Below, piece after piece: positions 7,714-9,295 of a DNA stretch of 64,000 bases. The DNA is from Fistulifera solaris (lineage: Eukaryota), in assembly GCA_030295235.1 (NCBI GenBank), contig AP026140.1, positions 186,001-250,000 on the forward strand, in the 5' to 3' direction. Position 1 is the first letter of the stretch. The number at the start of each line of letters is the position of its first letter. Position numbers and translations under genes: made by a program. The notes under the pieces are model-generated. The model did not search any database and was not told where the DNA came from. It saw only the letters and a program-made list of their open reading frames with translations.

Positions 7714-9295
7714 ATGTGGCGAGGTGTTTTCGCGATCATGTGGATGTTGTCGCTGTGTTCCAGGGGATGTGCATTTCGTGGAGCACCTGGCCTTGCTAAC
7801 CCATTACAATCACATCGATGTGTCCAGTCCTCTGCTTTATTATCAACCCGGCTCAAATTTCGATACATCGAATCATCAATACAACGACCGCTGTCGCGCT
7901 GCTTCGTCACGTTGAATAATGATTCTGTAGAAACTTCATTCGGACACATGGCTAATTTGTACCAAGAATGGAGTCTCGAACAAGATCAGATGCTTTGGGA
8001 GTATCGCAATGAGCCTGTGAGTACCATTGCTGCTCGTCTGGGCAGAGGTCTTCGAGGTGTCGAAACGAGATTAGCCAAACTCAAAGATCCTTCGAGCAAC
8101 GCGTACATGCGTTTATTCAGTGATGATCGGGCGCTGTCGGATGAGAATGGAAAGAAACCCAAGTTTGTACCAGCATCGGAAGTGTTGCGGAGAATACGAT
8201 GGGACGCGAGTTTGACCAGCCACGACTTTTCGATTCTCTATTACGATCGTGTCGAAGATGAAGTACTGGAAGTACCATTCGATGCCCCCAACACAAGCAT
8301 CAAAGGAAAGGCAACGACTATGATAGATGCCCTTCCGGAACACAGAATTAAAGGGATAAAGTACAAAGAACAGGTCGTATGGGATAGAGATCGCCGGTTG
8401 GATTTGGTGTTTTCGGGTCCTGGAATTGCTCGCGTCATGGAGAGCTACGACGAATGGAAGCAAGCACGTGATGCCGAAGAGGAAGCGAATCATAAACGAC
8501 AAGCAGAAGTATCGTGCCGACTACAAAGTGCATTGGGTATAGAGCGTTTCACTGAGCTCAAAGAACTTTCTCGCGATATTCAGACAACTGCTCAACGAGA
8601 AGACAACATGCTCCTCATGATGGAAGTTGAGAAATACGTACAGACAGCACTAACACTGTTTCGTCAGGCTCGAGAGGACCCTTCCACTAGTCCAGTGCCG
8701 TCTTTGATTGCCATGAACGATTATGAAGCACTGGATCAGCTTTCTGAGATTGTGGCGCTTTTACCTGATACACAATTGAAACCCGTCATTCTGACCGAAG
8801 TATGGCGAGCGATGAAAAAAGTAGAAGGTAAACCTGTGGAAAATCAACCGAAGGAGTTACCGGAAATTGATGAAGCCGATTTAGTCGAGACGTTTGTACG
8901 GGGGTCCGGTCCTGGTGGGCAAAAGGTTAGTAACGATCGGCTTGTTATGCACACAAAAAAGTCTCGACACACTCATTCCTCTCTTATTGCGTGATTTACA
9001 GGTCAATAAAACCAGCAATCGCGTGTCCCTACTTCATGTACCTACTGGACTGCGTGTAGAATGCCAGGACACGCGTTCATTGCAACAAAACCGGAAGATA
9101 GCCAGGAAGCGCTTGCGTTTAAAACTAGACGAGTACTTGAATGGTAGTCAGAGCCGTACTAGCTTGGCCGCTCAAAAAGCTGCCGCCAAAAAATTGAAAT
9201 CCAAAGCAAGGAGTCGTTCGAGACAAAAACTGAAACGTGAAGCGAACAACGATCCAGCATCGGAGACGTTGGAAGATGGAGAACCTAGTTTTTGA
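7714..9295 (+). CDS. Fusion protein: signal peptide + HTH/Myb-like + MJ1316 domain + class-I release-factor GGQ domain (C12orf65/ArfB-like peptidyl-tRNA hydrolase)
   Basis: Exons 7714-8925 and 9002-9295 (GT-AG intron 8926-9001) join to [49 protein letters not shown] plus a basic tail. MJ1316 signature EVLRRIRWD..YYDR..EVPF..LPEHRI..VVWDR at ~8164-8412. Confidence 0.85.

Follow-up and report, generated by a model that had tools for sequence, protein, structure and literature searches.

The joining of a C12orf65-like release-factor domain to an MJ1316 domain was reported by Burroughs and Aravind in 2019 (PMC6514570, section 2.5, Fig. 4C), who proposed that release-factor activity is coupled to organellar RNA damage or repair. 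In its passages on this fusion, the main text names no organism, organelle, HTH or helical bundle. Human mtRF-R (C12orf65/MTRFR, PDB 7A5H) is a mitochondrial protein of 166 residues, having a GGQ domain and a long basic C-terminal helix without a codon-recognition domain. As described in parts of PMC8786322, and likewise in a passage of an Hsp15 paper, it works on split large subunits bearing peptidyl-tRNA together with a separate RNA-binding partner, the S4-domain protein MTRES1, which it requires. The same parts of PMC8786322 report no release activity of mtRF-R in numerous in vitro assays, including those with ribosomes lacking an A-site codon. ArfB (YaeJ) and ICT1 (mL62) are also stand-alone GGQ proteins with a basic C-terminal extension and codon-independent action; the alpha-i helix is the feature that divides ICT1/ArfB class 1 from C12orf65 (Burroughs and Aravind, PMC6514570). 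In bacteria, the PrfH-RtcB system couples a release factor to the repair or recognition of damaged RNA. As for diatom plastids, passages of a 2025 preprint (10.1101/2025.09.02.673837) describe one MutS2 as well as tmRNA/SmpB, which deals with non-stop complexes, and call the plastid ribosome steps downstream of MutS2 splitting uncharacterized.

We analyzed a window of 64,000 nucleotides from the raphid diatom Fistulifera solaris. An earlier note on this DNA had pointed to a gene for an HTH, MJ1316 and GGQ protein and had known of no characterization of such a fusion. The gene is a further case of an architecture that has already been described and is functionally uncharacterized. The fusion has been in print since 2019, whereas functional characterization is, judging by the titles found, apparently still absent, as literature searches returned no title indicating an experimental study of it. 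The diatom protein has the same two signature domains as the fusion of Burroughs and Aravind, and the coupling idea is the same. Added here are a plastid-type presequence, a range covering diatoms and Parmales, extra domains and relatives that lack the release-factor domain. Since both the fusion and its rationale were already published, the advance is incremental rather than categorical.

Gene structure and presequence

The gene extends from the ATG at 7714 to the TGA at 9295 on the + strand, and its two exons encode a protein of 501 residues (Table 1). The intron proposed in the earlier note is borne out by several observations. The PF00472 profile runs unbroken across the splice, exon 1 closing at profile position 26 and exon 2 opening at 27 (Pfam). 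The spliced junction is present at the identical point in P0005, a 90% identical ortholog from Fistulifera solaris. In the two closest metagenomic relatives (P0002 and P0003), unrelated read-through sequence follows straight after GGQKV, which is the expectation if the intron position is conserved. The sole sequencing run containing the gene (X1, share 0.96) has one contig, which covers the intron unspliced and is DNA-like; X2 and X3 yielded nothing. We also considered a gene-model artefact, that is, two separate genes. This was rejected in view of the continuity of the profile over the splice, of contiguous transcript-derived homologs and of the intron itself, whose 76 nt are not divisible by 3 and which, if read through, brings a stop into frame (TGA, 8992-8994). 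The two-exon gene of this diatom is real, and every feature described in the earlier note was found where it had been placed.

Table 1. Positions of gene, presequence and domain features in the window
Feature	Position	Strand	Residues	Details
Exon 1	7714-8925	+	404 codons	start ATG 7714-7716; ending ...GPGGQK
Signal-peptide-like segment	7714..7773	+	aa 1-20	MWRGVFAIMWMLSLCSRGCA; hydrophobic; read from sequence
Transit-peptide-like region	7774..7947	+	aa 21-78	S-, T- and R-rich; weakly conserved
Putative Myb/SANT-like HTH	7954..8118	+	aa 81-135	W..EQD..LW...IAARLGRGLRGVETRL; three/four helices (AF2)
MJ1316 domain	8170..8388	+	aa 153-225	IRWD, YYDR, PEHRI, VVWDR; Pfam PF04457
Folded helical bundle	8425..8835	+	aa 238-374	conserved ALDxLSE(L/I)VALLPD motif; AF2
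RF-1/GGQ domain, first part	8863..8925	+	aa 384-404	PF00472 profile positions 6-26
Intron	8926-9001	+		76 nt, GT..AG (GTTAGT...TTTACAG); interrupts the GGQ domain directly after GGQK
Exon 2	9002-9295	+	97 codons + TGA	frame differs from exon 1
RF-1/GGQ domain, second part (peptidyl-hydrolase)	9002..9235	+	exon 2 aa 1-78	PF00472 profile positions 27-108
Long C-terminal helix and Lys/Arg-rich tail	9080..9292	+		overlaps the end of the Pfam match; AF2 helices P0005 355-378, 380-411

The gene is neighbored by an acyl-CoA dehydrogenase (4130-5419) and by ORFs without a Pfam match, and no functional link emerges from this neighborhood.

The protein is probably plastid-targeted, judging by a presequence motif that is conserved in homologs. 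Cleavage is predicted before F21 (7774-7776) at an ASAFAP-type site, between MWRGVFAIMWMLSLCSRGCA and F (...SRGCA, then FRG). Conservation in the alignments starts only at MANLYQEW, and most homologs cover about 81% of exon 1. Among 47 homolog presequences with a hydrophobic window, 34 have the hydrophobic stretch followed by [ASGC]F, compared to 13.0 expected from shuffling, while the motif is absent in the other 13; the presequence of a Corethron transcript reads ...LVCSFAPP. These counts come from motif matching combined with a simple hydrophobicity script of our own, and several homolog gene models have doubtful N-termini. The signal peptide and ASAFAP-like site noticed earlier are thus upheld at the level of motifs, which is also the level at which the presequence has the bipartite form of diatom plastid proteins.

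Release-factor domain and N-terminal module

Pfam places both PF04457 and PF00472 above their cut-offs, and together with the AF2 helices of the HTH-like unit this agrees with the single-chain architecture claimed earlier. The GGQ codons are at 8914-8922 (ggt ggg caa, context GPGGQ), and exon 2 alone matches PF00472 with an E-value of 7.7e-14 and 52.1 bits, the cut-off being 35 (Pfam). Pfam reveals no codon-recognition domain (PCRF) at E <= 1, and the tail is basic, just as the earlier description of the domain had it; AF2 places helices in this tail.

In both sequence and structure, the GGQ domain belongs with C12orf65/mtRF-R rather than with ArfB/ICT1. Its best relative in the PDB is human mtRF-R (7a5h_C, E 2.6e-23), followed by the mouse protein (2rsm, 1.6e-19). 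RF1/RF2 rank behind mtRF-R with E-values of 1e-12 or weaker, and PrfH chains are weaker matches still (1e-8); no ArfB or ICT1 chain occurs among the 45 PDB sequence matches (phmmer). For structure comparisons we used the AF2 model of the 90%-identical ortholog P0005 (pLDDT 89.3, pTM 0.78). Superimposed on 7a5h_C, this model gives TMt 0.84 at 43% identity (Foldseek) and Z 10.3 with rmsd 2.7 over 112 of 114 modeled residues, the C-terminal helix included (VIA), PrfH chains again being weaker (Z 7.4-7.6). In the model the last two strands (334-340 and 345-349) are linked by a turn of 4 residues, and therefore there is no alpha-i insert. The NCBIfam ArfB profile (NF006718) scores 16.1 bits against exon 1 and 14.3 bits against exon 2, with a cut-off of 100; scoring the exons separately lowers the result, and yet even the sum stays far below 100. 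Where the earlier note had pooled C12orf65, ICT1 and ArfB as one class, the assignment to stand-alone GGQ proteins holds, but the class has to be narrowed to C12orf65/mtRF-R.

The diatom protein shares with mtRF-R the GGQ domain, the long basic C-terminal helix and the lack of codon recognition, and it differs in its plastid-type presequence and in carrying, within the same chain, an N-terminal module of 300 residues. It resembles ArfB/ICT1 in its stand-alone GGQ domain, basic C-terminal extension and putative codon-independent action, but lacks the alpha-i insertion in the model and scores far under the ArfB cut-off. With PrfH-RtcB it has in common the coupling of a release factor to damaged-RNA repair or recognition; however, PrfH keeps its recognition domain, is linked to RtcB by gene neighborhood rather than fusion, and has no MJ1316.

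The first domain of the N-terminal module, the HTH unit, can be read directly in the sequence (W..EQD..L...IAARLGR...V..RL), and its helices in the P0005 model (10-18, 24-31, 35-46 and 51-66) have pLDDT values of 93-95. In the window protein it has no Pfam match at E <= 1, although in one relative it matches Myb_DNA-binding with an E-value of 0.17. Fold matches are weak and generic (overall Z 4.4-6.1): GcrA DBD has Z 6.1 (rmsd 1.4, 46 aa), and the others are Tc3, CENP-B, c-Myb and Cdc5 (Myb repeats Z 5-6), typical of DNA binders. A Foldseek search with the HTH and MJ1316 part of the model found nothing at E <= 0.001, the best match having an E-value of 0.4. As a separate observation, the HTH unit also matches repeats of a Rad4/XPC-like protein (P0363).

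The MJ1316 domain is matched by PF04457 with an E-value of 3.8e-17 and 63.2 bits (cut-off 26.3), over positions 3-75 of the 75 in the profile (Pfam). Residues invariant over 105 homologs include D-R, N, P-x-H-R and W. Neither the PDB sequence search nor structure comparisons matched the domain to a solved structure; fructose-1,6-bisphosphatase, the sole VIA-align match (Z 5.6), was treated as chance. Recognition of 2',3'-cyclic-phosphate RNA ends by MJ1316 is a published prediction (PMC6514570), and the diatom domain may bind such ends. In the literature on MJ1316, UPF0248/DUF504/PF04457 and LENG9, screened by title, no title suggests a functional study.

The region after MJ1316 had been regarded as a helical linker. 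This did not stand, since AF2 gives a confidently folded helical bundle, with helices at P0005 162-295 and pLDDT mostly >90. The bundle has no usable match in the ESM Atlas and only faintly resembles five-helix harmonin-homology-type bundles (Z ~7, below the guide value for helical folds).

Distribution of the fusion and of the module

The fusion is conserved in diatoms and Parmales. PF00472 and PF04457 occur together in 107 of the 120 best homologs, and the remaining 13 have PF04457 only; the gene models inspected among these 13 proved to be truncated or unspliced. Named sources of the fusion are Fistulifera, Seminavis, Amphora, Cylindrotheca, Skeletonema, Proboscia, Corethron and a taxon given as 'Thala...', and outside diatoms Triparma (Parmales). 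Parmales are the sister group to diatoms. In the MMETSP transcript-derived homolog P0294, both domains are contiguous within one ORF.

The N-terminal module also exists independently of the release-factor domain. HTH, MJ1316 and bundle without this domain make up an annotated Pavlovales sp. protein and are also encoded by an MMETSP transcript. Aligned with hhalign, the fusion family and the family lacking the release factor match with a probability of 100 and an E-value of 4.8e-49 over 271 columns, covering P0005 1-293. In another set of sequences, HTH and MJ1316 are joined to a HAD-type phosphatase, whose motif reads FCDLDGVLADF. More distant MJ1316 domains lie beside 2H phosphoesterases and also within a multi-domain RNA-repair protein of 1538 aa (kinase-CPD-HAD). 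These 2H phosphoesterase (LENG9/AKAP7-like) and RNA-repair proteins share PF04457 with the diatom protein, but they are weaker matches to the module, with query coverage beginning at about residue 58-78. They have no Myb-like HTH and bundle, and the partners of MJ1316 in them are 2H phosphoesterase, RWD, CCCH, kinase, HAD and CPD domains instead of a release factor.

A search for short GGQ proteins provided an indirect route to a stand-alone paralog. Among the best 120 of 271 matches, all 10 diatom-type matches inspected are fragments of the fusion, none being a stand-alone diatom C12orf65, and the next-best named matches are fungal C12orf65-like proteins.

Proposed function and alternatives

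We consider it fairly probable that the product of this nuclear diatom gene is imported into the complex plastid and serves there as a peptidyl-tRNA hydrolase of the C12orf65/mtRF-R type, acting independently of codons and in the following way. The C-terminal GGQ domain would enter the A-site side of the peptidyl-transferase center of a stalled plastid ribosome and hydrolyze the ester bond, the likeliest substrate being a large subunit that retains peptidyl-tRNA once the subunits have split. The basic C-terminal helix would anchor the GGQ domain on rRNA or tRNA, like that of mtRF-R. The 300-residue N-terminal module (Myb-like HTH, MJ1316 and bundle) would be an autonomous nucleic-acid-recognition unit that chooses the substrate in cis, a job done for human mtRF-R by its separate RNA-binding partner MTRES1. 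The target of the module may be the P-site tRNA or else an RNA end left by cleavage. The plastid location, the hydrolase activity, a 50S rather than a 70S substrate and any recognition of 2',3'-cyclic phosphate are inferred. If so, the diatom fusion is a concrete candidate for releasing nascent chains from obstructed large subunits in the plastids of ecologically dominant algae, and it would offer the first experimental handle on MJ1316 and its predicted ligand.

A bolder version of this proposal, which we put forward as speculative and by itself rather doubtful, makes the protein a single-chain release factor of plastid ribosome quality control. A stalled or collided ribosome would be split, perhaps by the lone diatom MutS2. 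The module, taking the role of MTRES1 in cis, would then use the P-site tRNA, or a nuclease-cut RNA end with a 2',3'-cyclic phosphate, to recognize the obstructed 50S and so license the GGQ domain to release the peptide. The module would then be an ancient and portable 'damaged-RNA reader' of red-lineage algae, joined to the hydrolase in diatoms and Parmales, joined elsewhere to a HAD phosphatase, or free in haptophytes.

The mechanism favored in the earlier note is ArfB/ICT1-like: the protein would bind an intact plastid 70S ribosome that has reached the 3' end of a truncated mRNA and stalled there, while the basic C-terminal helix of the factor probes the empty mRNA channel and MJ1316 reads the 2',3'-cyclic-phosphate end of the cleaved mRNA. 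Such a factor would have a GGQ domain that lacks codon recognition and ends in a basic helical tail, as this protein does, and the tails of C12orf65 and ICT1/YaeJ are argued to be homologous in passages of Duarte et al. (2012). The association of MJ1316 with RNA repair is likewise in print (PMC6514570), and the 2H and HAD fusions found here are in line with it. We nevertheless regard this mechanism as unlikely, given the low ArfB profile scores and the absence of ArfB/ICT1 among the PDB matches. Moreover, the closest characterized relative, mtRF-R, was inactive in the numerous in vitro assays reported in those parts of PMC8786322, and the cited preprint passages (10.1101/2025.09.02.673837) already assign non-stop complexes in diatom plastids to tmRNA/SmpB. 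In our analysis, mtRF-R-like action on obstructed large subunits is more likely than ArfB-like action on non-stop 70S ribosomes.

The location itself might be read differently, the protein being the mitochondrial mtRF-R ortholog of diatoms, or a dual-targeted one, that gained an N-terminal extension. All C12orf65 proteins characterized to our knowledge are mitochondrial, and these include the nearest relatives of the GGQ domain. Because, in addition, the short GGQ matches inspected include no stand-alone C12orf65 from a diatom, with fungal C12orf65-like proteins ranking next among the best 120 of 271, a mitochondrial or dual location has to be considered. That search is an indirect one, however, and the N-terminus does not look like an amphipathic mitochondrial presequence: it is hydrophobic and signal-peptide-like with F directly after A at the predicted site, a pattern recurring in 34 of the 47 presequences and as CSFAPP in Corethron. 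On this evidence we find a location other than the plastid alone improbable.

Returning to the plastid hydrolase proposed above, its module could conceivably be no RNA-damage sensor at all. It might act as a sequence- or structure-specific adaptor for nucleic acid or protein, tethering the GGQ domain, whose role would perhaps be other than rescue, to plastid RNA, the nucleoid or a partner. Such an adaptor would agree with the resemblance of the HTH to the DNA-binding domains of Myb, GcrA and Tc3 and to the repeats in P0363, with the occurrence of the module as a separate protein and with the predicted status of the MJ1316 ligand. Even so, we deem it very improbable, as the enzymes to which MJ1316 is repeatedly fused, namely 2H phosphoesterase, HAD phosphatase and the kinase-CPD-HAD repair protein, act on phosphate ends of RNA or nucleotides, and the domain's invariant D-R, H-R and K residues would fit a phosphate-binding site.

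Gene structure and conservation of the fusion

The 501-aa protein is encoded by a two-exon gene (table below), and the spliced ORF contains all the motifs quoted in the earlier note. The intron length is not divisible by three, and reading through it leads to a TGA at 8992-8994. The Pfam match to the RF-1 domain (PF00472) comes in two exactly abutting pieces, profile positions 6-26 at the end of exon 1 and 27-108 (E 7.7e-14) at the start of exon 2. This continuity of the profile over the exon junction strongly supports the splice from within the sequence itself. The sequence of P0005 (Fistulifera solaris FisN_6Lh386, 90% identical and the closest named homologue among the matches listed) also runs spliced across the junction. 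In X1, the sole sequencing run with the locus, which is DNA-like, one contig spans the intron unspliced. MJ1316 (PF04457) maps to aa 153-225 (E 3.8e-17, 63.2 bits versus a cut-off of 26.3); the Pfam scan reported no codon-recognition domain.

Features of the window around the fusion gene
Feature	Position	Strand	Remarks
Acyl-CoA dehydrogenase ORF	4130-5419	+	upstream neighbour, intact, 429 aa, all Acyl-CoA_dh domains
ORF	5991-6644	-	no Pfam match at E <= 0.01
Fusion gene	7714-9295	+	two exons
Exon 1	7714-8925	+	ATG start at 7714, 404 codons
Intron	8926-9001	+	76 nt, GT..AG (GTTAGT...TTTACAG)
Exon 2	9002-9295	+	97 codons + TGA, frame differs from exon 1
ORF	9558-10145	+	no Pfam match at E <= 0.01
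ORF	10770-11813	+	no Pfam match at E <= 0.01
ORF	14014-14640	+	no Pfam match at E <= 0.01

A homologue search with exon 1 as the query returned 224 proteins. Among the best 120 of these, 107 carry PF00472 and PF04457 together, and further named sources are Seminavis, Amphora, Cylindrotheca, Skeletonema, Proboscia, Corethron and a 'Thala...' taxon, as well as Triparma (Parmales, the sister group of diatoms). Related mRNAs do encode the fusion, since the transcriptome-derived P0294 from Corethron hystrix has both domains within one ORF. The remaining 13 have PF04457 alone. They include P0001, P0002 and P0003, gene models that end within the intron or continue through it directly after GGQKV, an outcome that a conserved intron position would also produce. 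Taken together, the gene is real.

Structure of the GGQ domain and of the N-terminal module

With 105 aligned homologues as input, AlphaFold2 gave a confident model of P0005 (mean pLDDT 89.3, pTM 0.78). Of the 114 residues modelled in the mtRF-R structure, 112 superpose with the C-terminal part of this model, the long C-terminal helix included (TMt 0.84 in Foldseek; Z 10.3, rmsd 2.7 in VIA). In sequence comparison with the PDB, P0005 matches human C12orf65/mtRF-R best (7a5h_C, E 2.6e-23), then mouse C12orf65 (2rsm, 1.6e-19); RF1/RF2 come next with E values of 1e-12 or weaker, and PrfH with 1e-8. The 45 matches include no chain of ArfB or ICT1, and with the NCBIfam ArfB model, whose cut-off is 100 bits, the two exons score 16 and 14 bits. 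Burroughs and Aravind (2019; PMC6514570) give the alpha-i insert as the feature separating ICT1/ArfB class 1 from C12orf65; the last two strands of the modelled GGQ domain are linked by a short turn, hence without this insert. Among the matches listed for the GGQ region, the short diatom-type proteins inspected are fragments of the fusion, and the next named relatives are fungal C12orf65-like proteins.

The N-terminal 300 residues of the P0005 model form three folded units, each with pLDDT mostly >90: a domain of three or four helices, the MJ1316 domain with its alpha/beta fold, and a five- or six-helix bundle (162-295). The latter had been described as a helical linker; in the model it is a folded domain instead. 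HTH and MJ1316 modelled alone reach a lower confidence (pLDDT 79.8), which suggests that the bundle packs on both. The helical domain weakly resembles HTH domains of the Myb, GcrA, Tc3 and CENP-B type (Z 4.4-6.1; Foldseek E 0.4 or worse). The bundle resembles harmonin-homology bundles at Z about 7, under the guide value of the tool for helical folds. PDB sequence and fold searches found no solved relative of MJ1316.

The N-terminal module in other proteins

An exhaustive phmmer search with the HTH and MJ1316 region (aa 79-240) yielded 658 cluster representatives at E <= 1e-3. The G.GGQ motif is present in 37 of the best 147; the remainder include fragments and two further families. One of these combines HTH, MJ1316 and the same helical bundle without a release-factor domain, and hhalign aligns it with the fusion family across residues 1-293 of P0005 (prob 100, E 4.8e-49). 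One of its members is an annotated protein in the haptophyte Pavlovales sp. CCMP2436 and is matched by an MMETSP transcript. Its members (P0300/P0388 from this haptophyte, P0296 and relatives; alignment A4) are stand-alone proteins of about 300-360 aa, backed by transcriptome ORFs and in several cases bearing signal-peptide-like N-termini.

In the other family, HTH and MJ1316 are joined to a HAD-type phosphatase with the motifs FCDLDGVLADF (motif I), ILTG and ILIDD and weak Pfam matches to NT5C. This architecture, for which no name was met in the literature consulted, resembles that of an enzyme healing the ends of RNA or nucleotides. Its members (P0285, P0307, P0309, P0318, P0325, P0332, P0337, P0339 and P0341; alignment A3) are unnamed and eukaryote-like. 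The complete-looking models P0309, P0318 and P0325 have acidic N-termini without a signal peptide, so these proteins may be cytosolic.

In more distant matches, MJ1316 sits beside 2H phosphoesterases of the AKAP7 type, in some cases together with RWD and CCCH domains; one 1538-aa protein has it beside the kinase, HAD and CPD domains that typify enzymes of RNA repair. Judging from these domain arrangements, the N-terminal module is an autonomous unit that has repeatedly been coupled to enzymes acting on nucleic-acid or nucleotide phosphate ends.

The Myb-like HTH unit is not confined to MJ1316 proteins: two tandem stretches match it in P0363 (772 aa), a Rad4/XPC-like DNA-repair protein (Rad4, BHD_1, BHD_3), and up to four in P0359 (375 aa). 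In P0317 and P0340 a CIA30 (complex I assembly factor) domain precedes HTH and MJ1316, which may reflect either a genuine fusion or the merging of gene models.

Probable location, proposed mode of action and published work

The protein begins with MWRGVFAIMWMLSLCSRGCA, directly followed by FRGAPG... After MWRGVFAIMWMLSLCSRGCA come about 58 poorly conserved, S/T/R-rich residues, and conservation starts at MANLYQEW. Homologues show the same pattern (IHAFR, VRAFR, VKAFT, LSAFR, VAAFR, ASGFS and others), and a Corethron transcript has ...LVCSFAPP, the textbook diatom plastid motif. A simple script detected a hydrophobic 10-residue window in 47 of 64 usable homologue presequences. Within 5-28 residues of the window start, [ASGC]F follows in 34 of the 47, compared with 13.0 expected when the downstream residues are shuffled. 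At the level of motifs, this pattern speaks for import into the complex plastid. [ASGC]F is absent from 13 of the 47, and the starts of some gene models are doubtful. A mitochondrial or dual location seems quite improbable. C12orf65 is treated as mitochondrial by Duarte et al. (2012), the consulted part of which mentions neither an extra domain nor a plastid form.

The earlier note, which named C12orf65, ICT1 and ArfB together, envisaged rescue of stalled organellar ribosomes. According to PMC8786322 and PMC9757039, mtRF-R fails to rescue non-stop ribosomes in vitro. It binds split large subunits retaining peptidyl-tRNA and releases the chain, acting jointly with MTRES1, an S4-domain protein in contact with H69 and the P-site tRNA. 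Diatom plastids, according to the preprint 10.1101/2025.09.02.673837, already deal with non-stop complexes through tmRNA/SmpB and possess one MutS2. Both the mode of action of mtRF-R and the presence of tmRNA/SmpB favour a plastid mtRF-R-like hydrolase, and this is probably what the protein is: its GGQ domain would act in the plastid on a substrate chosen in cis by the N-terminal module. An ArfB-like mechanism on non-stop 70S appears unlikely. It is very improbable that the N-terminal module is an adaptor with a role unrelated to damage; the enzyme partners of the module agree with the published MJ1316 prediction without proving it. Hydrolase activity, substrate and MJ1316 ligand alike are inferences.

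The fusion of a C12orf65-like domain with MJ1316, of which the earlier note knew no characterization, and the coupling of rescue to RNA damage that the note inferred are both already in print, the coupling as a computational hypothesis (Burroughs and Aravind 2019; PMC6514570). Among the titles listed on C12orf65 in diatoms or plastids, MJ1316 (UPF0248/DUF504/PF04457) and diatom plastid ribosome rescue, none indicated an experimental study, so the fusion still appears functionally uncharacterized. The main text of PMC6514570 names neither diatoms nor a plastid location for the fusion. Relative to that text, the plastid-type presequence, the diatom and Parmales distribution, the Myb-like and helical-bundle domains, the RF-less and HAD-fused relatives and the argument for mtRF-R-like over ArfB-like action are new. 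The protein is thus a further member of a described, experimentally untouched architecture and, rather than a new type of system, a good and specific candidate for studying plastid ribosome quality control and testing MJ1316.

Two X1 contigs cover 7956-8085, one identical to the window and one with 6 substitutions in 130 nt. Their similar depths (17.2 and 13.1) fit a source organism that has two alleles or homeologous copies.
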